DNA of 64,000 nucleotides, taken from contig JAUSEW010000029.1 of the NCBI GenBank assembly GCA_030651475.1, forward strand, positions 21,777-85,776, given 5' to 3'. Source of the DNA: Candidatus Levyibacteriota bacterium. Lineage in GTDB: Bacteria > Patescibacteriota > Microgenomatia > Levybacterales > UBA12049. The first letter of the stretch is position 1. Each line of letters opens with the position of its first letter. Made by a program: the position numbers and the translations under genes. This document shows, one piece after another, positions 2,784 to 64,000 of the stretch. The notes below the pieces were generated by a model. The model was not told the origin of the DNA, made no database searches, and saw nothing but the letters and a program-made list of their open reading frames with translations.

Positions 2784-4895
2784 ATGGCTGAAGATAAAAG
2801 ATATGTTGAATTAGATCACATCAGAAACATTGGCATTATTGCCCATATTGACGCGGGTAAAACCACGACTACCGAGCGTATTTTGTACTATACAGGGAAA
2901 ACCTACAAAATCGGAGATATTGATGAGGGGACAACGGTCATGGATTGGATGGAAGAGGAAAAGAAAAGAGGGATCACGATTGTGTCTGCTGCAACTACTG
3001 CATATTGGGGGGGTTACAGATTTAATATTATTGACACTCCTGGACACGTTGATTTTACAGCCGAAGTAGAAAGGTCGCTTCGGGTTTTGGACGGTGGAAT
3101 CACAGTTCTGGATGCAGAAGAAGGAGTTCAATCTCAATCCGAAACTGTCTGGAGACAAGCAGATAAATACAAAGTTCCAAGACTTTGTTTTATTAACAAG
3201 ATGGATAAGGTTGGAGCTGATTTTTTGGCAACTGTCAAAAGCATTGAGGACAGACTCGGAGCAAATACGGCAATTATGGTTTTGCCAATCGGAGCCGAAG
3301 CAACCTTTAAGGGAGTTTATGATTTACTGACCAGAAAATCCGTTATCTGGACAGGAGAAGAATTAGGCGCAAAGTTTGAAATTACTTCGGAAATCCCGGA
3401 AGGAATGGGACAGGAGATTGAAAAATACAGAGCCAAGTTGGTTGAGAAAATTGCAGAAACAGATGATGTGCTGGTCGAAAAATATCTTGCAAATCAAGAG
3501 ATTGGGGTTGAGGAATTAAAGAAAGCCTTAAGGCGGGCAGTTATTGCTTATAAATTAGTTCCGATTTTCGCCGGATCATCCTTGAGGAACAAAGGAGTGC
3601 AGCTTCTTCTGGATGGAGTTGTTGATTATCTTCCATCTCCTGTTGATCTAGATCAAGTGAAAGGAATAAATCCAAAAACAGGGGAAGAAGAAATAAGAAA
3701 ATTAGTTCCCGAAGAGTCAATTGCGGGTTTGGCTTTCAAAATTCAGAATGATCCTCACGTTGGAAAACTTACCTATTTTAGGATTTATTCAGGTAAAGTT
3801 GCGGCCGGAACTTATATTTATAACAGCACTAAAAATATTCAAGAAAGGGTTGGGCGGCTGCTTCTGATGCACTCCAATGAAAGAACGGAAATAAAAGAAG
3901 CGTTTGCCGGAGAAATTATTGCAATCGTCGGACTTAAAGACACGACCACAGGAGATACGCTTTGTGATCCGGAAAAACCAATTATTTTAGAAAAAATTAC
4001 CTTCCCGGAGCCGGTTATATCCCTAGCAATTGAGCCAAAAACGAAATCAGATCAGGAGAAATTGGGATACGCTTTAAAACGTTTGATGGATGAAGATCCG
4101 ACATTTCAGGTTAAGACCAATCATGAAACAGGACAGACAATTATTTCAGGAGTTGGAGAGCTGCAGCTTGAGGTTAAAGTAAATACCATGAAGGCTGATT
4201 TCGGAGTTGAGGCCAATGTCGGAGACCCACAAGTGGCCTACAAAGAAACTATTAGCAGGGAAGCGGAAGGTGAAGGAAAATACATCAAGCAATCCGGAGG
4301 AAAAGGACAATACGGACATTGTCTGTTGAGAGTTACGCCTAAGCCTCGCGGAGAAGGTTTTGAATTTGTTAATGGTGTCAAGGGAGGAGCAATTCCGGCA
4401 ATATTTATATCCTCGATTGAAAAAGGAGTTAAGGAAACAATGGAAAACGGAATTTTGTTGGGTTACCCGATGGTAGATATGACGGTTACGGTTTATGACG
4501 GGTCCTATCATGAAGTTGATTCTTCAGATATTGCCTTTAAGATCGCAGCTTCCCAAGCCTTGCAGGCAGCAACCAAAAAAGCAGGCCTGACACTTTTGGA
4601 ACCAATCATGAAAGTTGAAGTAACAACCCCAAATGAATTTATGGGAGATGTGATTGGAGATTTGTCTTCCAAAAGAGCGCAGATTTCAGGGACAGAAGAG
4701 AGAAGCAGAGCAACGATTATTTTGGCAATGGTGCCTTTGTCAGGGCTTCCTGGTTATGCAACTGCGCTTCGCTCTATGTCTCAAGGCAGAGCGTCTTATT
4801 ATATGGAACCTTCACATTATGAGGAAGTGCCCAAAAATATTCAAGAAGAAATGTTGGCCAAATCTACATTTACAGGAAGGGTTAATGCACAGTAA
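2784..4895 (+). CDS. fusA: translation elongation factor G
   Basis: 703 aa; AHIDAGKTTTTERIL, DTPGHVDF, NKMD GTPase motifs and EF-G domain order. Confidence 0.97.
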   Translation: MAEDKRYVELDHIRNIGIIAHIDAGKTTTTERILYYTGKTYKIGDIDEGTTVMDWMEEEKKRGITIVSAATTAYWGGYRFNIIDTPGHVDFTAEVERSLRVLDGGITVLDAEEGVQSQSETVWRQADKYKVPRLCFINKMDKVGADFLATVKSIEDRLGANTAIMVLPIGAEATFKGVYDLLTRKSVIWTGEELGAKFEITSEIPEGMGQEIEKYRAKLVEKIAETDDVLVEKYLANQEIGVEELKKALRRAVIAYKLVPIFAGSSLRNKGVQLLLDGVVDYLPSPVDLDQVKGINPKTGEEEIRKLVPEESIAGLAFKIQNDPHVGKLTYFRIYSGKVAAGTYIYNSTKNIQERVGRLLLMHSNERTEIKEAFAGEIIAIVGLKDTTTGDTLCDPEKPIILEKITFPEPVISLAIEPKTKSDQEKLGYALKRLMDEDPTFQVKTNHETGQTIISGVGELQLEVKVNTMKADFGVEANVGDPQVAYKETISREAEGEGKYIKQSGGKGQYGHCLLRVTPKPRGEGFEFVNGVKGGAIPAIFISSIEKGVKETMENGILLGYPMVDMTVTVYDGSYHEVDSSDIAFKIAASQALQAATKKAGLTLLEPIMKVEVTTPNEFMGDVIGDLSSKRAQISGTEERSRATIILAMVPLSGLPGYATALRSMSQGRASYYMEPSHYEEVPKNIQEEMLAKSTFTGRVNAQ

Positions 4896-6476: not shown

Positions 6477-6539
6477 AAATGCCCCAAATTTTTATTTTTT
6501 ATTTTTGAGTTTTGATATTTGATTTAATGTAAGTGCTCC

Positions 6540-18674: not shown

Positions 18675-19478
18675 ATGATTAATATTAAAACGAATGAAGA
18701 GATTGAAATAATGCAACTGGGGGGGGAAATTTTAGCTGATGTTTTGTTTAAGGTTTTAGAGCATGCGAAAGTTGGGGTTTCGGAACTTGAATTAGATAAA
18801 TTGGCAGAAGAGTTGATTCTGAAAGCAGGAGGAGAACCTGGATTTAAAAAAGTTGCAAATTATAATCATACAATATGCGTATCCACGAACAATGTTGTGG
18901 TACACGGAATACCGACTAATTATAAATTTAAAAAAGGGGATGTTGTCGGAATAGACTGCGGAGTGTATTTTAAAGGATTTCATACGGATGCCGCACATAC
19001 GGTGCGAGTTAAAAGTTTCCCGCCTCAGCGGGATCCCTCAAGCGATGGGACAAAGTTTAAAGTTCAAAGTTCGGATGGGGTAGATAGGTTTTTAGAAACT
19101 GGAAAAAAAGCGTTGGAAAAAGGAATAGAGCAGGCGAAAATTGGCAATAGAGTGGGGCATATTTCTAAAGCAATACAGGATACGGTTGAAGGAAAAGGTT
19201 ACTCCATAGTTAGAAGTTTGGTTGGGCATGGGGTAGGCAGAAAACTTCATGAGGATCCTGAAGTTCCCGGATTTTTAAATGTTCCCATTCAGAGAACACC
19301 GCTTCTTAAAGAGGGAATGACTATAGCAATTGAAGTCATTTACAATATGGGCAAAAGAGATGTTGTATATGCTAATAATGATGGATGGACGATTAAAACT
19401 AAAGATGGAAGTATTTCCGGCCTTTTCGAAAGAACAGTTGCCATAACCAAAGAGAGTCCTAGGATACTAACCGTATAG
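18675..19478 (+). CDS. map: methionine aminopeptidase type I
   Basis: 267 aa; pita-bread motifs (GIDCGV, GHGVG, EPEV), operon position. Confidence 0.9.
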   Translation: MINIKTNEEIEIMQLGGEILADVLFKVLEHAKVGVSELELDKLAEELILKAGGEPGFKKVANYNHTICVSTNNVVVHGIPTNYKFKKGDVVGIDCGVYFKGFHTDAAHTVRVKSFPPQRDPSSDGTKFKVQSSDGVDRFLETGKKALEKGIEQAKIGNRVGHISKAIQDTVEGKGYSIVRSLVGHGVGRKLHEDPEVPGFLNVPIQRTPLLKEGMTIAIEVIYNMGKRDVVYANNDGWTIKTKDGSISGLFERTVAITKESPRILTV

Positions 19479-37068: not shown

Positions 37069-38145
37069 ATGGGCAGGACACCTAATTCTCAAAAATCTAC
37101 AGCTTCAATTAGTAATTCAGAATCTTCACATAAATTAGATGCAGTTAAGCTCGCCATGGAGCAAATAGAAAAACAGTACGGAAGGGGCTCTATAATGCGG
37201 TTTGGCGAAGCTGGCCAGAAGCTGGATATCTCTGTCATCTCAACAGGGTGTCTTCCCGTAGACTTGGCGCTTGGAGTAGGCGGAGTGCCAAGAGGAAGAA
37301 TTATAGAAGTCTTTGGTCCCGAAGCCTCGGGAAAAACCACGATTTGTTTATCAATCATCGCCCAAGCCCAGAAGCATGGAGGAATTGCAGCCTTTATAGA
37401 TGCGGAGCACGCTTTGGATCCTCTGTGGGCAAGAACCATTGGGGTTAAGCTGGATGAACTTCTTATTTCCCAGCCGGATACAGGAGAACAAGCTTTGGAG
37501 ATCGCAGAAAGTTTGATTCGAAGCGGAGGAGTAGACGTTCTGGTTATAGATTCTGTGGCAGCGTTAGTTCCTCGAGCGGAAATAGAAGGAGAAATGGGAG
37601 ATTCCATGATGGGGCTTCACGCAAGACTTATGTCGCAAGCTTTGAGAAAACTTACAGGGGCTATTTCTAAATCCAAGACAATAGCAATTTTTACCAACCA
37701 GCTAAGGCAAAAAATAGGAGTTATGTTCGGAAACCCTGAAACCACAACCGGAGGTTTGGCGCTTAAGTTTTACTCTTCCGTTAGGATGGATGTTCGCAAA
37801 ATAGAAACGATAAAAGATGGAGATAGGGCTATCGGCTCAAGACATAGAGTAAAAATAGTTAAGAATAAGGTGGCTACGCCTTTTAGGATTGCAGAATTTG
37901 ACGTGATGGCTGATACGGGAATTTCCAGAGAGGGAGGAATAGTAGATGTAGGTGTTGAGATGGGAATTATTCAAAAGTCAGGAGCATTTTTCAGATTTGG
38001 GGAATTAATGCTTGGCCAAGGTAAGGAAGCAGCGAAAATATTTCTTAAGGAAAAGCCTGATATTGCTAAAAAGATTGTGGATGAGATTTTGAAAAAAAGC
38101 AAAACCTCCGGCACCCCTGTTGAAGTAGGAATTGAAGAGAAATAG
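37069..38145 (+). CDS. recA: recombinase RecA
   Basis: 358 aa; GPEASGKTT Walker [18 protein letters not shown]. Confidence 0.95.
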
Positions 38146-38151
38146 ATAATC

Positions 38152-38622
38152 ATGGAGGAGTTTGAGAAGTTTTACAATAAGGCGCTGAAGTTCTTATCCT
38201 ATCGTCCTCGATCGGAAAAAGAAATCCGCGATAAATTATTTCAAAAAAAGACGCCTCAAGATTTAATTGAAAAAATTGTTTCAAAGCTTAAAGAACAGAA
38301 GTTTATTAATGATGAAGAATTTGCGAAATTGTGGATTGAAAGCAGAAATAGATCTAAGCCACGCAGTTTACGTTTGATTAAATTAGAATTAAAGCGAAAA
38401 GGAATCGAAGGAGACATTATTGACAAAATGACTAATGATGAAGGATTAATGATTAAAGATTTGGAATCGGCTAAAAAGCTTGTTGCAAAGAGAATGGCAA
38501 GATTGAAGGGTTTGGATAGGCAAAAGATTTATGAAAAACTGGGGAGGTTTTTGGCTTCAAAGGGATTTGGTTGGGATACGATAAAACAGGTGATTGACGA
38601 AGTATTAAGCGAAGGAGTATAA
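38152..38622 (+). CDS. recX: regulatory protein RecX
   Basis: 156 aa; helical repeat pattern typical of RecX; directly downstream of recA. Confidence 0.75.
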   Translation: MEEFEKFYNKALKFLSYRPRSEKEIRDKLFQKKTPQDLIEKIVSKLKEQKFINDEEFAKLWIESRNRSKPRSLRLIKLELKRKGIEGDIIDKMTNDEGLMIKDLESAKKLVAKRMARLKGLDRQKIYEKLGRFLASKGFGWDTIKQVIDEVLSEGV

Positions 38623-42640: not shown

Positions 42641-45508
42641 TTAATTTGTACTGCAAAGCATTTTGTATTCGCAAGTTACGCAGAGCATATTTTTACTGCA
42701 TTTGAAATCACTTTTTTCAATTTCTGCAATTTTTTGAATTAGTTCGTTTTCTAATTTATCCAAATCTTCCTGCTTGAAGTTCATAGATTTTTTGGTATTT
42801 CCCTCAAGGAAATGAAGCGTTAGGGCTATATCTTTGGGATTTCGATTAAGTACGCTATCTTTAATCCGTGTTGCTGCCAGGGCATACATGGCAAGCTGAA
42901 GTTCGTGAGCCTCATGTGCTTTGGGATTATCTTGCCCTGTTTTATAATCAATAATTTCGATACCGTTACCTTTTTTGTCTATTCTATCGATTTTACCAAA
43001 AACTTTGACGCCATTCTTAAGCATAAAATTAAATGGCATTTCAAGTCCAAGAATTTTGGTTTTTGGGTTATACTCTTTTTTATAAAATTCTTCCAGTATT
43101 GCAATCGCTTGGGTGAATCTTTCTTCTTCATGTTTTTTATTTGTGTATCCTTCACTAATCCATTCGGTTTTAAGTATATTCAGTAAATCTTTTAGTGATT
43201 GGGTTTTCCCATCTTGAATATTTTTGTAAAAATTGTACAAAGTGCTGTGAATAGAAATACCAAAACTCTGGACACCGGCAATGGGAGTTGGGATGTTGAA
43301 AATAACCTTTGCTTTATAGTGAAGGGGGCAGATATCAAAACTCTGAAGATTTGAATATGTAATGTAGGAGACTTTATATGATTGTTTTGTCTCTTTGACT
43401 TCTTCTTTCTCCTCATAGTCGGATAGTATTTCCGTAAGGGATAGCTGTTGGGTTTGATTTTTTATTTCCTCTTGTTCCTGCAATTTTGGAAGCGCTTCGT
43501 AAATAAAAGGGGAAAGTTTTTTTGTCCGTTTAGCAGTTGCATAAAAATTAGCTGCTGTAAAATATAATCTTTCTTTTGCCCGCGTCATGCCAACATAAAA
43601 AAGTCTTCTTTCTTCTTCCAGATGAAAATCACTATTAGGATCTATTTTTTCCTTAATAATTCCCAGAGGCAGTGGGATTTTTTCATTTCTTTCACGCGAC
43701 GGGAAACGGTCGGATACAAGATTTACCAAGAATACAACCTTAAATTCAAGTCCTTTTGAAGAATGAACGGTCAAAATATTAACTGCATTTCTGTCTTTCC
43801 TGTCAATGTCCGCTGCTTGAGGACTGTCTCCCATTTGAAGCATGAGATTTAACCATTCGACGATGGTAAATATGTTAGCGTCATGACGTTCTGTCTCAAA
43901 ACTTTTTATTCTGTCAAAAAACTTTGCAATATTCTGGACTCTTCGTTCTTCTTTGACTGAATCTGTAGAATTAAGAGTCTCAAATAATCTTGAATCAAGC
44001 AGGAAATAATAGAGAATTTGTCCGGCTGTTTCTTTTTTGCTTTTCTCCAGATGTCTTTCTGCCATTTTTCTAAAATTTGTTAATTTTTCTTGCGTTTCAG
44101 GTTTTAGGAAAGATTGTTCGACATTGAAAAGTGCTTCAAAAAGAGTAAGATTTCTTTTTTTGGCAAAATTAAGTAAATAATTCAGTTCAATGTAGGGGAT
44201 GCTAAATATATCCATCGAAAGAACTCTGAAAAGAGATACTGAATCTGAAAGATTTGTCAGGAACATAAGATAAGCAATTAAGTCTTTTATTTCTTCCTGC
44301 TGGAAAAGATATCCGGGGCCTAAAAATTGAAAGGGGATTCTGTGTCTTTGTAAAGAAGCTGTAATTATACTTGCATGATTATTGGCTCTTACCAAAATCG
44401 CGACATCTTTATATTCATATTTGCTTTGAGTTAGCTCTTGGATTTTCTTGGCAATGGTATCTGCTTCGTCTTCCGATCGATTTTCATGAATGAATTCGAC
44501 TTCTTGTTTGTGTGCCTTGGAATTACTTTTGAGTTTTTTATCAATACCCTCAACAACTTCTAGTCGGTTGGGATTATTGTGTTGGATAAGTCGATACGCT
44601 GCATCCAAAATAGTCTGGATAGATCTATAATTATTATTCAAAGTGACAGTTTTGGCAGTTGGGAAATTTTTTTTAAATTGCAAAACATTGGAAACCGCAG
44701 CGCCTCTAAATCTGTATATTGATTGATCGTCATCAGCAACTACGGCAATATTTTTATCTTTTCCGGCGAGGGCAATTGCCAACTCATTTTGCGCATAATT
44801 GGTATCCTGAAATTCATCAACCAGAATAGATTTGAATTGATTTTGATATTTTTTCAGAATATTCTTTCTTGTCCGGAATAGCAGTAGGGTATTTGAAATA
44901 AGATCTGAAAAATCCATAACTGATTCTTTTATTTTCAATTCTTCATATTTTTTATAAGCATTTGCCAATTCCAAATATTGATCTTTTTCCTCTATCGATT
45001 TTTGAGTTTTCGCCCAATTAAGATATTCACCGGGTGATACATCTTCATCCTTAAGTCTTGAGAAATGCGAAAGCAGAGCATCCAGAAATTTTGTAGGATT
45101 TCCAAGAGGTCTAAAAAGTTTAAGATCCATATTGAAAATGTTTTTTCGGAGCAAAAGCATGGATTCTGCTTCCGAAATCAATTTATATCCTGGATCCAGT
45201 CCTATGGTATGCGCGTCGTCTCGAAGAATTCTGTCACAAAAACCATGAAAGGTCATAATCCACATTTGGGTATAACCATACGGCATTGCGATATCTACGC
45301 GTTCTTCCATTTCGCGGGCTGCCTTATCCGTAAAAGTTAGGGCTAGAATTTGGGAGGGAGGAATATTTTTTTCCAAAACTAAGTATTTTATTCTTTCTGT
45401 TATGACAGTTGTTTTGCCTGTTCCTGCGCCTGCAATAATGAGAAGCGGTCCGTTTCCATGGCGTACTGCTTCAAGCTGTTCCTTATTGAGGATTTTTTTG
45501 TCTTCCAT
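42641..45508 (-). CDS. UvrD/PcrA-family helicase fused to C-terminal PD-(D/E)xK nuclease with Cas4/AddB-like cysteines
   Basis: 955 aa; Walker A AGAGTGKT, helicase motifs; C-terminal EIIDYKTG and C...CxxCx5C cluster. Confidence 0.8.
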   Translation of the reverse strand: MEDKKILNKEQLEAVRHGNGPLLIIAGAGTGKTTVITERIKYLVLEKNIPPSQILALTFTDKAAREMEERVDIAMPYGYTQMWIMTFHGFCDRILRDDAHTIGLDPGYKLISEAESMLLLRKNIFNMDLKLFRPLGNPTKFLDALLSHFSRLKDEDVSPGEYLNWAKTQKSIEEKDQYLELANAYKKYEELKIKESVMDFSDLISNTLLLFRTRKNILKKYQNQFKSILVDEFQDTNYAQNELAIALAGKDKNIAVVADDDQSIYRFRGAAVSNVLQFKKNFPTAKTVTLNNNYRSIQTILDAAYRLIQHNNPNRLEVVEGIDKKLKSNSKAHKQEVEFIHENRSEDEADTIAKKIQELTQSKYEYKDVAILVRANNHASIITASLQRHRIPFQFLGPGYLFQQEEIKDLIAYLMFLTNLSDSVSLFRVLSMDIFSIPYIELNYLLNFAKKRNLTLFEALFNVEQSFLKPETQEKLTNFRKMAERHLEKSKKETAGQILYYFLLDSRLFETLNSTDSVKEERRVQNIAKFFDRIKSFETERHDANIFTIVEWLNLMLQMGDSPQAADIDRKDRNAVNILTVHSSKGLEFKVVFLVNLVSDRFPSRERNEKIPLPLGIIKEKIDPNSDFHLEEERRLFYVGMTRAKERLYFTAANFYATAKRTKKLSPFIYEALPKLQEQEEIKNQTQQLSLTEILSDYEEKEEVKETKQSYKVSYITYSNLQSFDICPLHYKAKVIFNIPTPIAGVQSFGISIHSTLYNFYKNIQDGKTQSLKDLLNILKTEWISEGYTNKKHEEERFTQAIAILEEFYKKEYNPKTKILGLEMPFNFMLKNGVKVFGKIDRIDKKGNGIEIIDYKTGQDNPKAHEAHELQLAMYALAATRIKDSVLNRNPKDIALTLHFLEGNTKKSMNFKQEDLDKLENELIQKIAEIEKSDFKCSKNMLCVTCEYKMLCSTN

Positions 45509-46042: not shown

Positions 46043-47032
46043 TTAATCTTCTATTTCTTTTACGGCGACTTCCTCAAGGCTTTTAGTTGAATTAAGTTTT
46101 TGGCCAAGCTGTCCGAACACATTGCTGACATTGGAAAACTGTCCCGAAGCATTATTGATATGTCTGCCCAAGATTTCCATATTCCCCGAAACTTTTTCGT
46201 AGTCACCCTGCATAGCTCTTAACATTTTGAAAACCTCACGGGAACGTCCTTCAATTTTCTTCCCTTCAAATGAAAGAAGTATTGTTTGAAGATGGGCATA
46301 AAGAGTACTTGGGGATACAACGTAGACTCTGGATCTTTTCGCAAAATCCATAACCTCGGTTATATTGACTAGCTCATAGTATACGGACTCGCTTGGTACG
46401 TACATTAACGCAAAATCCATTGTACCTTCTTCAGGAAGAATATATTTCCTAGCGATATCTGTTATATGTTTTTTTACATCCCTAATAAATTCTTTTTGGA
46501 TATCATTTTTTTCTTTTTCACTTTCTGCTTTGGTCATTTTCTGGAAATTCTCCATGGGGAATTTTGAGTCTATGGGCAAAATGCCCGCATCGGTTTTTAT
46601 CGCCGCATCAACTCTTTGTCCTGATTTAAATTGATATTGCAAATTGAAACTATTTTTAGGAAACATCTGCGATATAAGGTCTTTAAGAACCTGTTCTCCG
46701 ATATTTCCTCGTAGTTTCGGACTTTTAAGAAAATCCTGAAGTTCCCGCATGCCTCTTCCGATTTCACTCATCTCCCCAACTTCTTTGCCAACATCTCTAA
46801 TAACAGCAGCTGCCTTGTCAAGCCGTTCATTTAATTGTTTTGAATTTTCCTGAAGGGTTTTTACCATGTTAGTTGAAGATGAGTTAATAGAGCCCTGCAT
46901 GCTTTTTAGCCATTCAAGCAGGGTATCGTCAGGTTTATTGCTGGAAGATGATAGCTTTTTGTTGATGATAAAAATAATAATACCAAAGCCTACAAATACG
47001 AGAACTAGAATAAGGATAATTTGGATATTCAT
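46043..47032 (-). CDS. rmuC: DNA recombination protein RmuC
   Basis: 329 aa; N-terminal TM, coiled-coil, C-terminal DFALMYVPSESVYYE region typical of RmuC. Confidence 0.65.
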   Translation of the reverse strand: MNIQIILILVLVFVGFGIIIFIINKKLSSSSNKPDDTLLEWLKSMQGSINSSSTNMVKTLQENSKQLNERLDKAAAVIRDVGKEVGEMSEIGRGMRELQDFLKSPKLRGNIGEQVLKDLISQMFPKNSFNLQYQFKSGQRVDAAIKTDAGILPIDSKFPMENFQKMTKAESEKEKNDIQKEFIRDVKKHITDIARKYILPEEGTMDFALMYVPSESVYYELVNITEVMDFAKRSRVYVVSPSTLYAHLQTILLSFEGKKIEGRSREVFKMLRAMQGDYEKVSGNMEILGRHINNASGQFSNVSNVFGQLGQKLNSTKSLEEVAVKEIED

Positions 47033-48368: not shown

Positions 48369-49463
48369 CTACTCAAAGTAAAGTTCAGGATTTGCTATAA
48401 TATTTCTCCAATCCTCCTGTTTGCCATTGAAAAAGGCTGCCGAAGCGATCATTGCAGCGTTGTCAGTACATAACCTTTTTTCTGGACAGAAAAAAGGAAT
48501 TTTCAATTTTAAATTTTCAATTTTCAATTGGAACTCGTCACGGAGTTTTTGATTTGCTGCGACTCCGCCTCCAAGGAGAATTGATCTAACTTTATATTGT
48601 TGCGCGGCTTTAATTGTTTTGGAAACTAAGACATCAATAATTGCCTGCTGCGAAGAAGCAGAGATATCTTGAATGTATCTTTGGCTAAACTTTTCATTTT
48701 TATTTTTCAATGTTTCTCTTAAAACTGCGGTTTTAAGACCGGAAAACGAAAAGTCATAATCTTTTGAACCAATCATTGGTCTTGGAAAAGAAAATGCTTT
48801 TGGATTACCGTTTTTTGCAAATTTTTCAATTTCTGCGCCTGCAGGATAGGGAATTCCCAAAAGTCGTCCTATCTTATCAAAAGCTTCTCCCGCCGCATCA
48901 TCGCGTGTACCGCCAAGCCAGTGAATGCTGCCATGTTTTTCCATAAGGACTAAATCTGTATGTCCTCCAGATACAACGAGAGTAATTAATGGGAATTCTA
49001 TATTAGCGTTTAGCGTATAGCGTTTAGCGTTTAGTTTAGGATTTAGGATTTCGGATTTAGGATTTGCGCGAATGAAATTCGCGTAGATGTGTCCGATAAG
49101 ATGGTTAACCGGAACTATTGGTTTTTTTAAAACATAAGCAAGAGTTCTTGCGGTTTCTACTCCTACCAATAGAGATCCGATTAGTCCCGGACCAACAGTA
49201 ACGGCGATTACGTCGATCGAACCCGCGGGGTTTTGTACGTCAACCCCGCGGGTTGAACTCAATGCTTCTTTTATGACCGGAATCATATATTTCACTTGTT
49301 CACGGGCAGCAATATTGGGTATAATTCCTCCTGTTTTAGAATGAAGCGCCAACGAAGAAGCAACTACATTGGATAAAATTTTCAACTCTTTAGTTTTAAT
49401 ATTGGCATCTATAATTGCGACTCCTGTTTCATCGCAGCTTGTTTCTATACCTAAAATTTTCAT
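48369..49463 (-). CDS. tsaD: tRNA N6-adenosine threonylcarbamoyltransferase TsaD
   Basis: 364 aa; MKILGIETSCDETGVAIID, HxxGH metal site; contains repeat-encoded insertion. Confidence 0.9.
   Translation of the reverse strand: MKILGIETSCDETGVAIIDANIKTKELKILSNVVASSLALHSKTGGIIPNIAAREQVKYMIPVIKEALSSTRGVDVQNPAGSIDVIAVTVGPGLIGSLLVGVETARTLAYVLKKPIVPVNHLIGHIYANFIRANPKSEILNPKLNAKRYTLNANIEFPLITLVVSGGHTDLVLMEKHGSIHWLGGTRDDAAGEAFDKIGRLLGIPYPAGAEIEKFAKNGNPKAFSFPRPMIGSKDYDFSFSGLKTAVLRETLKNKNEKFSQRYIQDISASSQQAIIDVLVSKTIKAAQQYKVRSILLGGGVAANQKLRDEFQLKIENLKLKIPFFCPEKRLCTDNAAMIASAAFFNGKQEDWRNIIANPELYFE
49003..49065. repeat. nine tandem heptamers (TTAGCGT x4-like then AGGATTT x4-like) inside tsaD
   Basis: read directly: ttagcgt ttagcgt atagcgt ttagcgt ttagttt aggattt aggattt cggattt aggattt; 63 nt, in-frame. 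Confidence 0.9.
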
Positions 49464-53273: not shown

Positions 53274-54155
53274 ATGCAAAAAAGTATAAAAAAGGCAGTT
53301 TTACGGACTCTTATTTATAGTGATATTTTCGACTATCCTCTTTCAAAAGAAGAGATTTGGAGATTTTTGATTGGGCAAAAAATTGGCAGGGAATCTTTTA
53401 AAAAAGAGTTAAAGAGTTTGGCTAAATCTGAATCTACGCCCTTGGGGTGTAGCTATAAAAATAATTTCCATTATCTTTTGGGTCGGGAAAAAATTGTAGA
53501 AAAAAGAATCGAAAGAGAAAAAATAAGCAGAAGAAAACTTAAAATTGCGAGAAAAGCAGCGAGATGGCTTTCGTATATTCCCACCACGCTTTTTGTAGGA
53601 GTAAGCGGAGCATTGGCGTTAAAAAATTCCCATAAAGATGATGACATAGATTTATTTATTGTCACTTCCAAAAACACCCTTTGGTTTACGAGATTATTGA
53701 TGGTTATCTTGCTTATGTTGATCGGACAGTACAGGAAGCGCAATGCAAAAGATGTTTGTGATAAAATTTGTTTGAATATGTTAATTGACGAAACGTCCTT
53801 GCAATTGCCGTTGAAACAGCAGGATTTATACGGCGCGCATGAAGTTATTCAACTAATGCCAATTTCTGTCAAAAACAATATGCATCACAGATTTTTGCAA
53901 GCAAATAAATGGACGGAAAAGTTTCTGCCAAACGCAATAGAAAGAACCAAAAGCGGGCAAAAAAAATCATTATTCTTAATTCATAATTCATTATTCATTT
54001 TAGAGTGGTTAGCAAAACAACTTCAACTTTGGTTTATTAATAAACATAAAACAATAGAAGTGGTTTCCGATAATTTTCTTGCTTTTCACCCCTTAAATTA
54101 CAGGAGAAAGATCCTTAATTTATATAATCAAAAAATAAAAAAATATGGAATTTAA
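53274..54155 (+). CDS. hypothetical protein with nucleotidyltransferase-fold motif
   Basis: 293 aa; GVSGALALKNSHKDDDIDLFIV fits GS-x9-13-DxD of Pol-beta-type nucleotidyltransferases. Confidence 0.4.
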   Translation: MQKSIKKAVLRTLIYSDIFDYPLSKEEIWRFLIGQKIGRESFKKELKSLAKSESTPLGCSYKNNFHYLLGREKIVEKRIEREKISRRKLKIARKAARWLSYIPTTLFVGVSGALALKNSHKDDDIDLFIVTSKNTLWFTRLLMVILLMLIGQYRKRNAKDVCDKICLNMLIDETSLQLPLKQQDLYGAHEVIQLMPISVKNNMHHRFLQANKWTEKFLPNAIERTKSGQKKSLFLIHNSLFILEWLAKQLQLWFINKHKTIEVVSDNFLAFHPLNYRRKILNLYNQKIKKYGI

Positions 54156-55155
54156 TTTAGTAGCTTGCGGGGGAACGTTTGACCATTTTCATAAAGGACA
54201 TAGGGAATTATTGAAGTTAGCTTTTTCTTTAGGTAAAAAAGTGATTGTTGGAGTAACAAGCGATAATTATCTCAAGGGTTCAAAATTCAAAATTCAACAT
54301 TCAAAGTTTGTAGAATCTTACGAAAAAAGAAAAGAGGAGGTTTTAGGTTTTATAAAAGAGGAGAAGGTCTTAGATAGGGTAGGGATAGTGGAAATAAATG
54401 ATTTGTTTGGACCTACGTTGTCCTATGATTTAGCAATAGACGCGATTGTCGTATCGGAGAGTACCAAAGAGGGTGCAAGAACTATAAATAAATATCGTAC
54501 GGATAAAGGATTACCCCGGCTAGAAATGTTCATCTTGCCAATGGTTTTGGCGAAAGACGGAGGGGAAATATCTTCTTTTAGGATAAGAAACGGAGAAATA
54601 GATAGGGAAGGGAGACCCTACATTAATCCTTTATGGCTTAAGCATAAGTTACTTTTAACGGAAGCAATAAAAAGAAGATTGGAAAAACCATTTGGCGTTA
54701 TCATAAAAGACCTTAAAGAATTACCTAGCCAAAATATTCAGTTTGTCATAACGGTCGGAGATGTTACTACGAAGAAGTTCAACGATTTGTATTTAAAACA
54801 GAATATCGCGGTTGTAGATTTTAAGGTGGGCAGAAAAATTATGTTTTCCAGAATCGAAGAGTTGGGATTTTCAGGGATAGAAATAGTAGTTAAAATTAAT
54901 AATCTGGCAGGCTGTCTTACTCCGGACATTTTTAAAGGAGTGCGGAATGCATTGAAGCAGGGATTGGAAAATAGGATAATTATTAAGATAGAAGGAGAGG
55001 AAGATTTGTCAGTATTGCCTTTGGTTTTAGCTTCGCCTCTTAACTGCGTTGTTTTCTATGGACAGCCGAATGAAGGAATAGTGCGCGTAGTGGTTTCGGA
55101 GGAAATTAAGAAAATTGCTTATGGGTTAGTTGATGGGTTTGAGATGCTGAAATAA
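54145..55155 (+). CDS. archaeal-type phosphopantetheine adenylyltransferase fused to putative DUF359 (GTP-dependent dephospho-CoA kinase-like) domain
   Basis: N-terminal domain GGTFDHFHKGH ... SSFRIRNGEID matches archaeal PPAT; C-terminal half has VGDVTT, VDFKVGR and GEEDL motifs. Confidence 0.55.
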   Translation: MEFNLVACGGTFDHFHKGHRELLKLAFSLGKKVIVGVTSDNYLKGSKFKIQHSKFVESYEKRKEEVLGFIKEEKVLDRVGIVEINDLFGPTLSYDLAIDAIVVSESTKEGARTINKYRTDKGLPRLEMFILPMVLAKDGGEISSFRIRNGEIDREGRPYINPLWLKHKLLLTEAIKRRLEKPFGVIIKDLKELPSQNIQFVITVGDVTTKKFNDLYLKQNIAVVDFKVGRKIMFSRIEELGFSGIEIVVKINNLAGCLTPDIFKGVRNALKQGLENRIIIKIEGEEDLSVLPLVLASPLNCVVFYGQPNEGIVRVVVSEEIKKIAYGLVDGFEMLK

Positions 55156-62897: not shown

Positions 62898-63515
62898 ATG
62901 CAGAAAATCCTCATTGCAACTAGGAACGAAGGAAAACTTAAGGAATTCAAACATTTTCTTTCCGGCCTTAAAGCGAATATTGTTTCTCTTGCGGATTTAG
63001 GTATTAAAGATAAAGTTGAGGAGGTTGGAGAAACTTACAAAGAAAATTCGCAAGCTAAGGCATTAGCTTATTCTAAGAAGAGCGGATTACCCGCAATAGC
63101 GGATGATGGAGGAATAGAAATAGAAGCTTATGGTGGTGCACCGGGAATAAAAAGCAAAAGATGGTTAGGAGAAGAATCAACAGAAGGAGATATTATAAAT
63201 TACATGAGAAAAGTTGCAAAAGAATTGCCTAATAACAATAGAAGAGCATTTTTTAAAACTGTTGTGTCATTAGCGATGCCGAACGGAAAAGTTTGGAGCG
63301 TTAATGGTGAGATTGAGGGAATTATCGCAGAAAAACCTTATTTAAAACCTTTAAAAGGATATCCGTACCGTTCATTTTTCTATTTGCCAAAAATTAAAAA
63401 ATATTATCATGAAGATCAATTGACCGACAGAGAACAAAAGCTCTATAATCATAGATATAAGGCGGTTCAGAAATTAAAACCAATAATCAAGAAAGTATTA
63501 ATGATAAATGATTAA
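62898..63515 (+). CDS. rdgB: non-canonical purine NTP pyrophosphatase (RdgB/HAM1 family)
   Basis: 205 aa; ATRNEGKLKEF N-terminus. Confidence 0.8.
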   Translation: MQKILIATRNEGKLKEFKHFLSGLKANIVSLADLGIKDKVEEVGETYKENSQAKALAYSKKSGLPAIADDGGIEIEAYGGAPGIKSKRWLGEESTEGDIINYMRKVAKELPNNNRRAFFKTVVSLAMPNGKVWSVNGEIEGIIAEKPYLKPLKGYPYRSFFYLPKIKKYYHEDQLTDREQKLYNHRYKAVQKLKPIIKKVLMIND

Positions 63516-63524
63516 GGATTAATT

Positions 63525-64000
63525 ATGATTGATTTAAAGTTTTTACGGGAGAATCCGAAAATTGTTCAAAAAGCAGCAAAAGATAAAAATATTGATATTA
63601 ATATTAATCATATCTTAGAGATTGATGCAAAATATAAAGAGCTGCAATTAAAAGTACAAAAAATAAGAGAGGAAAGAAACGTATTGGTTGGCGAAATAAA
63701 AGGAAGGCCTACTTCAGATCAAATAGAAAAAGGAAAAAATATAAAAGTAAAACTGGAAAAAGAAGAAAACTCATTGAATGCGGTAGGAGATGAATTAAAA
63801 ACATGGCTTTTAAAAATTCCTAATCTTCCAAAGTCTGATGTGAAAGTTGGCAAAGATGAAAGCGAAAATGAAATTATTAAAAAAGTTGGAGATCCAAAGC
63901 AATTTTCATTTACCCCGAAAGACCATCTGGAATTAGGAGAAGCGTTGGACATTATTGATGTAAAACGAGCAACAAAAGTTTCTGGTTCGAGATTTGGATA
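63525..64000 (+). CDS. serS: serine--tRNA ligase, N-terminal part (3' end beyond window)
   Basis: MIDLKFLRENP... coiled-coil N-domain typical of SerS; not in ORF track because no stop in window. Confidence 0.8.
   Translation, partial: MIDLKFLRENPKIVQKAAKDKNIDININHILEIDAKYKELQLKVQKIREERNVLVGEIKGRPTSDQIEKGKNIKVKLEKEENSLNAVGDELKTWLLKIPNLPKSDVKVGKDESENEIIKKVGDPKQFSFTPKDHLELGEALDIIDVKRATKVSGSRFG

Follow-up and report, generated by a model that had tools for sequence, protein, structure and literature searches.

Low-copy heptanucleotide arrays recur in frame at fixed sites of tsaD in Levybacteria-type genomes

Short repetitive DNA within bacterial genes takes several described forms. In 2000 Ogata and colleagues reportedly described Rickettsia palindromic elements (RPEs), small selfish elements that lie in frame within conserved genes. 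RPEs are dispersed palindromic elements of 100–150 nt that belong to one sequence family. Tandem repeats of a 7-nt unit form a second class: according to PMC4692102 (citing Mrazek 2007), heptameric simple sequence repeats (SSRs) are in excess in many bacteria, a polymerase-slippage hypothesis tied to the 7-nt size has been put forward, and the excess has been noted since 2007 without an accepted mechanism. The same source names the cyanobacterial short tandemly repeated repetitive (STRR) sequences and the GGGAATC/GGGGAYT repeats of Xanthomonas and Nostoc, describes published heptamer repeats as G-rich, mostly intergenic and under-represented in coding regions, and attributes their preference for four units to G-quadruplex formation (PMC4692102). 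Inside an open reading frame (ORF), neuO of E. coli K1 carries an AAGACTC tract of 3–53 copies in its 5' coding region, and 65.6% of genomes are out of frame (PMC13001214). Here we describe heptamer arrays in tsaD on a 64,000-nt stretch of DNA from a Candidatus Levyibacteriota bacterium (contig JAUSEW010000029.1, hereafter the window), follow them through related genomes of the candidate phyla radiation (CPR), and weigh how they may arise.

The host gene, tsaD (48369–49463, minus strand), encodes a 364-residue subunit of the tRNA t6A37 threonylcarbamoyltransferase and is intact. Its product is 100% identical to a database protein from a metagenome-assembled genome annotated as TsaD (P0001), matches solved TsaD structures with E = 4e-77, and bears the marks of the TsaD/Kae1/Qri7 family over its full length, namely the PF00814 domain, the HxxxH metal motif (H121 and H125), SGGHT, the GGTRDDAAGEAFDK segment and CTDN. 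Since all invariant residues are present, the enzyme looks functional from its sequence.

Within this minus-strand frame, positions 49003–49065 encode ...RANPKSEILNPKLNAKRYTLNANIE... and consist on the forward strand of nine 7-nt units spanning 63 nt (TTAGCGT TTAGCGT ATAGCGT TTAGCGT, then TTAGTTT, then AGGATTT AGGATTT CGGATTT AGGATTT). The original prediction, made from the letters of the window, had reported nine in-frame 7-bp units here, and our re-reading of the sequence is identical. On the coding strand the tract is (AAATCCT)x4, AAACTAA and (ACGCTAA)x4, translated as ANPKSEILNPKLNAKRYTLNAN; 7-nt units, not a multiple of three, thus lie within the tsaD ORF. Tandem Repeats Finder (TRF) divides the tract into two arrays, 49003–49034 (unit TTAGCGT, 4.6 copies, 92% matches) and 49035–49065 (unit TTTAGGA, 4.4 copies, 91% matches). 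The latter, which we call array 1a, is AAATCCT x4.4 in the codon view of the minus strand, encodes NPKSEILNPK and forms part of a loop insertion at what we call site 1; the former, array 1b, is CTAAACG (ACGCTAA) x4.6 on the same strand and encodes LNAKRYTLNA. A third array, overlooked by the original prediction, occupies 48498–48529 of the same gene (site 2; forward-strand AATTTTC, coding minus-strand AATTGAA, x4.6 by TRF) and encodes LKIENLKLKI at residues 312–322.

Over every 21 nt a heptamer array passes through all three reading frames, so any unit that holds TAA, TAG or TGA gives an in-frame stop. In each of the three tsaD arrays a lone imperfect unit, likewise missed before, removes this stop on the coding (minus) strand. 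In array 1a, AAATCCG stands for AAATCCT at 49052 and changes TAA to GAA (Glu), the only mismatch of the array; in array 1b, ACGCTAT stands for ACGCTAA at 49017 and changes TAA to TAT (Tyr); and in the site 2 array a coding-strand T for G at 48511 changes TGA to TTA (Leu).

The two sites differ in how they sit in the protein. In the alignment with Thermotoga TsaD (6nak), KSEILNPKLNAKRYTLNA stands exactly against a gap of 18 residues located between the HxxxH helix and the VSGGHT strand; this bears out the insertion that had been supposed for the 63-nt tract. In an AlphaFold model built from 35 orthologues (mean predicted local distance difference test score (pLDDT) 82, predicted template modelling score (pTM) 0.83), residues 134–152 are the sole internal segment with pLDDT < 50 and have no secondary structure; the low-complexity loop of the original prediction is thus recovered, and the model predicts it to be disordered. 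Site 2, modelled as a helix end and turn with pLDDT > 90, is no insertion: relatives have 26 residues in this segment whether or not they carry an array, Thermotoga has 24, and the array takes the place of 11 codons without a change in length.

We determined how specific the 7-nt period is by scanning the 64-kb window with a run-score (match/mismatch) detector, using 30 composition-preserving first-order Markov shuffles as control. Period 7 gave four strong arrays and periods 4–6 and 8–15 none, and the shuffles contained zero strong arrays at any period. At a lower threshold, eight arrays were found at period 7 against 0.35 expected, other periods staying near expectation. Three of the six best arrays in the window fall in tsaD, which makes up 1.7% of it; when adjacent arrays are merged, tsaD holds two of five sites (binomial estimate ~3e-3). 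Related loci behave alike, with ~10.7 period-7 arrays per 100 kb and 0–1.2 at other periods in the first 0.57 Mb surveyed, an over-representation specific to period 7 relative to its neighbours, as in the heptameric SSR excess. Altogether ~1 Mb of related loci held 79 non-redundant period-7 arrays, 64 of them within long ORFs. Their units are A/T-rich on the coding strand (A 213, T 120, C 70, G 45) and are not the G-rich, G-quadruplex-capable, mainly intergenic units of the published excess. Arrays also occur in a Nealsonbacteria locus and other CPR loci, and none was found in the few non-CPR outgroup loci.

The genome belongs to Candidatus Levybacteria (Microgenomates, CPR). Our comparison of tsaD itself covered the DNA of 160 orthologous loci (given L-numbers) and 74 unique orthologue genes at at least 55% identity; the closest relative in the collections searched shares 80% amino-acid identity in TsaD. 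An open frame by itself obliges an array with a stop in its unit to carry a mismatch in the stop codon. More telling is how few mismatches these arrays have beyond the forced fix: among 24 such arrays in the surveyed loci, 24 of the 35 mismatches lie within the stop codon, which accounts for 10% of positions, and in 15 of the 24 the stop-codon mismatch is the only one. Arrays of stop-free units are perfect in 23 of 40 cases. The TAT fix of array 1b is shared by L002, L013, L084, L089 and L152, and the same unit can carry different fixes by lineage, TGA becoming TTA or TGT, and the TAA of AATTCAT arrays becoming GAA or AAA. At site 2 the stop position reads TGT in L082 and TTG in the TAG-type array of L006.

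Across orthologues, the arrays fall at five recurrent places in TsaD, corresponding to window residues 18–31, 67–83, 132–157, 213–223 and 312–322. Site 1 units vary by lineage and are often perfect (AATTCAT, AAATTCG, AAATTTC, AAATTCA, GAATTTC, AAAGTTC, GAACCAA, ACAGACT, AAATGTC and AAATCCG, the last as a perfect array at the position of array 1a in L118), and other lineages have no array there or an inverted-repeat element of 90–110 nt. Site 2 arrays always cover roughly the same eleven codons, with the units TTGAAAA, TTAGAAA, TTGGAAA, ACGCTAA, AGAGTTC, TCAGTTC, AATCGTC, AATACGA and AAATGGA. Beyond tsaD, arrays of different units at the same site were seen across lineages in a UvrD/PcrA-like helicase (L013, L016, L087, L118), a valyl-tRNA-synthetase-like (ValRS-like) gene (L037, L147) and a 272-residue membrane protein (L006, L019), these gene names being our own reading of the sequences. 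Repeat arrays in a core gene had at first been thought unusual; for this clade that premise fails, because they recur in tsaD and in other housekeeping genes. An assembly artefact was rejected on the ground that the same kinds of arrays occur, always in frame, in independent assemblies from many studies.

Several other inserts share these positions. The 90–110-nt element at site 1, which resembles the Rickettsia palindromic elements within genes, has the terminal inverted repeats TTAATTTGTCATTGCGAG / CTCGCAATGACAAAATAA, is in frame, and encodes peptides such as SLRAKRSN...PRNDK (L005 3446–3553; L006 3449–3538; L081 2103–2192; L090 743–841). In the window, 49220–49254 of tsaD form a perfect GC-rich hairpin with 13-nt arms (AACCCGCGGGGTT/AACCCCGCGGGTT) and a 9-nt loop, in frame and encoding STRGVDVQNPAGS, with an RNA fold of −28.8 kcal/mol (z = −4.65); it is an insertion relative to Thermotoga TsaD at residues 67–83, where other lineages have heptamer arrays, and the palindrome is also found in L001, with a single arm in L152. 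A low-complexity insert, SNLYPPSSK..L.SSTIYRP, recurs at TsaD site A in many lineages (protein alignment columns ~105–140; carriers P0005, P0010, P0017, P0026, P0030, P0061 and P0113), some of which share a C-terminal DDVLQ extension. Many of the contigs compared whose TsaD and neighbouring genes are clearly Levybacteria-like (L001, L009, L012, L013, L016–L018 and others) are titled 'uncultured Gammaproteobacteria bacterium' in third-party assembly records, probably a taxonomic mislabel.

The length of site 1 varies in discrete steps. The segment from GH to SGGH has 29 codons in L007, where both arrays are collapsed (TCT AAA CTA AAC GCT GAC), 36 in L084 and 38 in L089, where the second array is expanded, 37 in L118, where only the first is, and 45 in the window and L002, where both are. 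L007 and L084 differ by exactly 21 nt of array (three units, 7 aa), as do L089 and the window, L089 being without exactly 21 nt of array 1a. Repeat-number variation, which the original prediction had suggested looking for, is therefore real between lineages, and it takes only frame-preserving three-unit steps. ORF intactness was judged by alignment length within a single open frame. Contig ends truncate ten of the 74 unique orthologue genes, the rest are single open frames except L069, whose apparent frameshift was rejected as the interruption is a masked N run, and no frameshift at an array was found among the 74. In the search for single-unit or OFF alleles between species, with no relatives above 80% identity in the comparison, only 21-nt differences were seen.

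These observations bear on the idea, raised by the original prediction, that gain or loss of one unit would frameshift tsaD. On such a reading the gene would be a phase-variable contingency locus whose frame is toggled by frequent single-unit slippage, as with the AAGACTC tract of neuO. The unit length is indeed no multiple of three, the tract lies inside an ORF, repeat number differs between lineages, and a heptanucleotide mechanism within an ORF is documented (PMC13001214). However, each tsaD array has 4.4–4.6 copies broken by an internal substitution rather than a long uninterrupted tract (3–53 copies in neuO; PMC13001214), orthologue frames are open apart from the contig-cut and masked cases, and lineages differ in 21-nt steps. 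Nor is this an accessory surface or host-interaction gene: TsaD is a core tRNA-modification enzyme with intact catalytic motifs, and equivalent arrays occur in the ValRS-like gene, the helicase, map and recX. We regard a switch of this kind as highly improbable. Programmed frameshifting, which some units would fit (X XXY YYZ), was rejected: most units misfit, and the zero frame encodes conserved protein throughout.

The arrays are conserved at the level of codons. At positions where the amino acid is shared, the window and other lineages use the identical codon in 38–51% of cases outside arrays, or about 46% on the whole. At site 2, by contrast, L004, L016, L093, L082 and L007 have identical codons at 45 of 45 positions where the amino acid is shared with the window, and for L002 the counts are 9 of 10 (array 1a) and 6 of 6 (array 1b); the amino-acid-specific expectation in arrays is about 5 of 9–10 per lineage. 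The L089 array equals window array 1b at 33 of 33 nt, rare CGC and ACG codons included, although the two TsaD proteins differ at 20% of conserved alignment columns, and nucleotide identity drops directly outside the site 2 array. Units also change in concert. The site 2 unit is TTGAAAA in the window and TTAGAAA in every unit of L006, L084 and L090, and L092 holds a perfect TTGGAAA array from which the former stop-fix unit is gone, as TGG needs no fix. These patterns indicate ongoing homogenisation of the units, with the fix unit kept by selection only when needed.

Could selection on the encoded peptides account for this conservation, the DNA periodicity being incidental? NPKSEILNPK, LNAKRYTLNA and LKIENLKLKI might form, for instance, a loop that binds a partner or an amphipathic heptad helix: orthologues only 65–70% identical contain the same peptides, three readings of a 7-nt unit yield a 7-residue period that suits amphipathic helices, and site 2 belongs to a confidently folded helix in the model. 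Yet sister lineages hold unrelated peptides at the same site (EIHNSEFIIHNS, ANSKFEIRNSKF, EPRTKNQEPRT) or none, the period is 7 nt rather than 21 nt, the prediction for site 1 is disorder, and selection on a peptide does not predict conservation that reaches the choice of codon, including the rare CGC and ACG. We consider an adaptive peptide improbable.

Conservation of codons above the rest of the gene would also be expected of a DNA or RNA functional element under direct purifying selection, such as a set of protein-binding iterons, a regulatory site inside the gene or a structured RNA, and the constant size of ~33 nt is roughly three helical turns. However, unit sequence varies freely between lineages and sites, so there is no common recognition sequence; RNA of the arrays folds no better than shuffles (z = 0.51 and −0.03); no credible Rfam match was found (best 17.5 bits against a gathering score of 100); and the positions follow protein-permissive sites in several unrelated genes. 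An element of this kind seems to us quite improbable.

The size of the arrays offers a further clue to their origin. Coding arrays peak at 32–33 nt (4.6–4.7 copies) and 45 of 64 measure 30–34 nt, whereas those outside long ORFs range over 19–33 nt, with 5 of 15 at 30–34 nt (Fisher p = 0.015). The 32–33-nt mode agrees with the preference for about four units in the heptameric SSR excess. No single-unit array longer than 34 nt was found in ~1 Mb by our own scoring, TRF giving some degenerate window arrays up to 5.6 copies. Longer heptamer-phased tracts exist only as juxtaposed arrays of differing units, as in the 63-nt tract of the window and in non-coding DNA of L134 and L045. A seed of 1.3–1.9 copies plus three units makes 4.3–4.9 copies, in agreement with the size peak.

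Starting from the anatomy, period specificity, 21-nt steps, stop fixes, codon-level conservation and recurrence at fixed sites described above, we infer, with slightly better than even confidence, that the arrays arise when DNA under replication or repair misaligns in a 7-nt register and selection for an open frame filters what results, and that they are tolerated by-products with no role as a regulatory switch. The nascent strand would misalign in this register throughout Levybacteria-type CPR genomes. If the misalignment were left unresolved, whole units would be gained or lost, and in genes only net three-unit changes would survive; each of the two adjacent arrays of the 63-nt tract, which share a disordered surface loop, would then be a seed of 1.3–1.7 copies plus about three units (21 nt, 7 aa). 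If the strand were to realign after a few bases, unit sequence would pass to the neighbouring unit with length unchanged, a conversion that would keep the DNA periodicity and could make an array out of native sequence where it stands. Through selection on the protein, arrays would persist at permissive sites only, and any unit with TAA, TAG or TGA would retain one variant copy at the in-frame position. Site 1 supports the part played by permissive sites, being the only internal low-confidence loop of the model and also accepting the 90–110-nt inverted-repeat element in frame. Selection may likewise cap arrays at about five copies, on the proposal that longer ones would frameshift an essential gene too often. 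Misalignment of this sort would be the form that the heptamer excess known from bacteria (PMC4692102) takes in the CPR.

Several points weigh against register misalignment. A single step of simple slippage cannot bring a seed of 1.7 copies up to 4.7, intermediates with one or two added units would frameshift an essential gene, and a stop-containing array would need its fix at birth; for these three reasons the origin of the arrays is left unexplained. The in-place swap of 11 folded codons at site 2 needs either the hypothetical realignment or paired +21/−21 events. Arrays outside long ORFs also end at ~33 nt (n = 15), and the codon identity could also reflect selection on the DNA or RNA sequence itself. 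In the set of 74 unique orthologues, tsaD holds 0.55 arrays per kb and its flanks hold 0.04, a 14-fold contrast that is inflated by shared ancestry and otherwise unexplained. Lastly, one uncommon unit, ACGCTAA, whose class ranks 307 of 1,172 in the window, is found at both site 1b and site 2 and again at a third location beyond tsaD, with equal unit phase at all three and with equal TAT fix and codon phase at both tsaD sites. Such recurrence looks more like the copying of a ready-made array than like independent local slippage.

ACGCTAA at three locations with a shared phase keeps alive a copy-and-paste process, by which heptamer-phased cassettes of ~33 nt would move between sites, within the gene or genome-wide, by ectopic conversion or template switching, overwriting an equal length; only copies in a codon phase where the stop fix works would persist. 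The site 2 array of L002 is identical to window array 1b at 31 of 33 nt, with the same unit, TAT fix and codon phase, and ACGCTAR arrays begin in one unit phase (AA|CTAAACG) at site 1b, site 2 and the third location, in L006 and L091. Site 2 arrays replace and do not insert, their narrow length of 32–33 nt equals 11 codons, AAATTGA-type arrays stand at sites A and 2 as well as upstream of tsaD in L093, and recA, recX and RmuC lie in the window. Against this, site 1 differs by clean 21-nt amounts, which suit the gain or loss of units and not a 33-nt cassette; most units belong to a particular site or lineage, and those of one site form graded series, as expected of in-place change; donor and acceptor share very little flanking homology; and a scan of a viral contig collection gave no match to the exact ACGCTAA array. 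We therefore hold copy-and-paste to be unlikely, and more doubtful still is its boldest form, in which Levybacteria-type CPR genomes write or copy quantised ~33-nt heptamer-phased cassettes that can overwrite 11 codons of essential genes in place and move between sites. A cassette process of that kind would differ from ordinary slippage and amount to a system of templated micro-conversion or of micro-mobile repeats.

The third location is an ACGCTAR-type array (AACTAGACGCTAGACGCTAAT...AACTAAACGCTAAC) at the locus end of L006 and L091, from 7245 on, and shows that this uncommon unit recurs at unrelated places. Non-coding heptamer-phased tracts flank a small two-gene cassette in L134 (5750–5812 and 6480–6700), and L045 holds non-coding arrays of one unit as an inverted pair ~200 nt apart (4535–4567 and 4766–4795). 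The unit drifts along these tracts (CCAATAT, CCAATAA, CCAATTT, CCAATGG; TTTGAGA, TTTTGAT, TTTGACA).

Elsewhere in the window, an ATTCATA/AATTCAT x4.0 array (53972–53999, plus strand) lies in an ORF without a Pfam match (53274–54155), its unit being the site 1 unit of tsaD in L001, L004 and L024, and a TTCAAAA x3.7 array (54279–54304, plus strand) lies in a cytidylyltransferase-DUF359 gene (54145–55155). Weaker arrays occur in the methionine aminopeptidase gene map (18675–19478; AAAGTTC x3 at 19052–19072, plus strand), in the RecX, Ham1-family and cytidylyltransferase-DUF359 fusion genes, and at the 3' end of the EF-G gene; that of recX is AATGATT x5 at 38427–38461. TRF further lists three degenerate period-7 arrays with match rates of 70–81% that are intergenic or at or near gene ends: AAACTCT x4.6 (2626–2657), ATTTTTG x5.6 (6488–6525) and ATTAATG x5.4 (63497–63534). 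Near tsaD (37069–38622, 42641–45508 and 46043–47032) are recA, recX, RmuC and a UvrD-type helicase fused to a PD-(D/E)XK nuclease, the same kind of helicase that bears heptamer arrays in other lineages.

Whatever their origin, the arrays make CPR genes a natural experiment on the heptamer excess: with positions that are fixed and alignable, a phylogeny can serve to count births, collapses, unit changes and stop fixes, and the reading frame separates mutational output from what selection allows. The arrays give core CPR proteins low-complexity inserts that are lineage-specific and can lead alignments, trees and domain boundaries astray. They also show essential enzymes of reduced genomes tolerating repeated rewriting of whole structural segments, the folded helix end included. 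Copy-and-paste, if true, would be a new kind of very small repeat dynamics, and if cassettes are written in this way the four-unit preference of heptamer repeats in other bacteria might share the mechanism.

The heptamer SSR excess and heptanucleotide repeats within ORFs are already known. Our literature search found no account of CPR heptamer arrays or of low-copy in-frame heptamer arrays in conserved genes, and Lin and Kussell (2012) make no mention of heptamers; we could not find an earlier description of low-copy, size-quantised in-frame arrays at fixed sites of essential CPR genes, with stop fixes and concerted evolution at the DNA level. Compared with neuO, the tsaD arrays are alike in being a translated 7-nt unit within an ORF, where full length results only from a multiple-of-three-unit contribution. 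The neuO tract, in contrast, has perfect copies of a unit without a stop problem, lies in a phage-borne accessory gene and is OFF in most genomes, while the tsaD arrays are interrupted, always in an open frame and housed in a core housekeeping gene. With RPEs they share the tolerance of short repetitive DNA in frame at surface-exposed sites of essential proteins, and the same tsaD sites host palindromic and MITE-like inserts (MITEs are miniature transposable elements with inverted repeats) in some lineages. They differ from RPEs as direct tandem repeats of ~33 nt with lineage-specific units and with no hairpin-forming inverted repeat. As in models of concerted evolution that invoke slipped-strand mispairing or gene conversion, an array's units resemble one another more closely than orthologous units of different lineages do, and one substitution can be present in all units of an array; different here are the ~4.7 units of only 7 nt, in essential ORFs, one of them held different against a stop. 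The heptameric SSR excess, as described in PMC4692102, has in common with these arrays a period-7-specific over-representation and a marked preference for about four units. Unlike the published repeats, the arrays described here are A/T-rich, lack G-tracts and lie mostly in long ORFs of conserved genes, where they stay in frame, carry stop-removing substitutions and evolve in concert at fixed protein sites.

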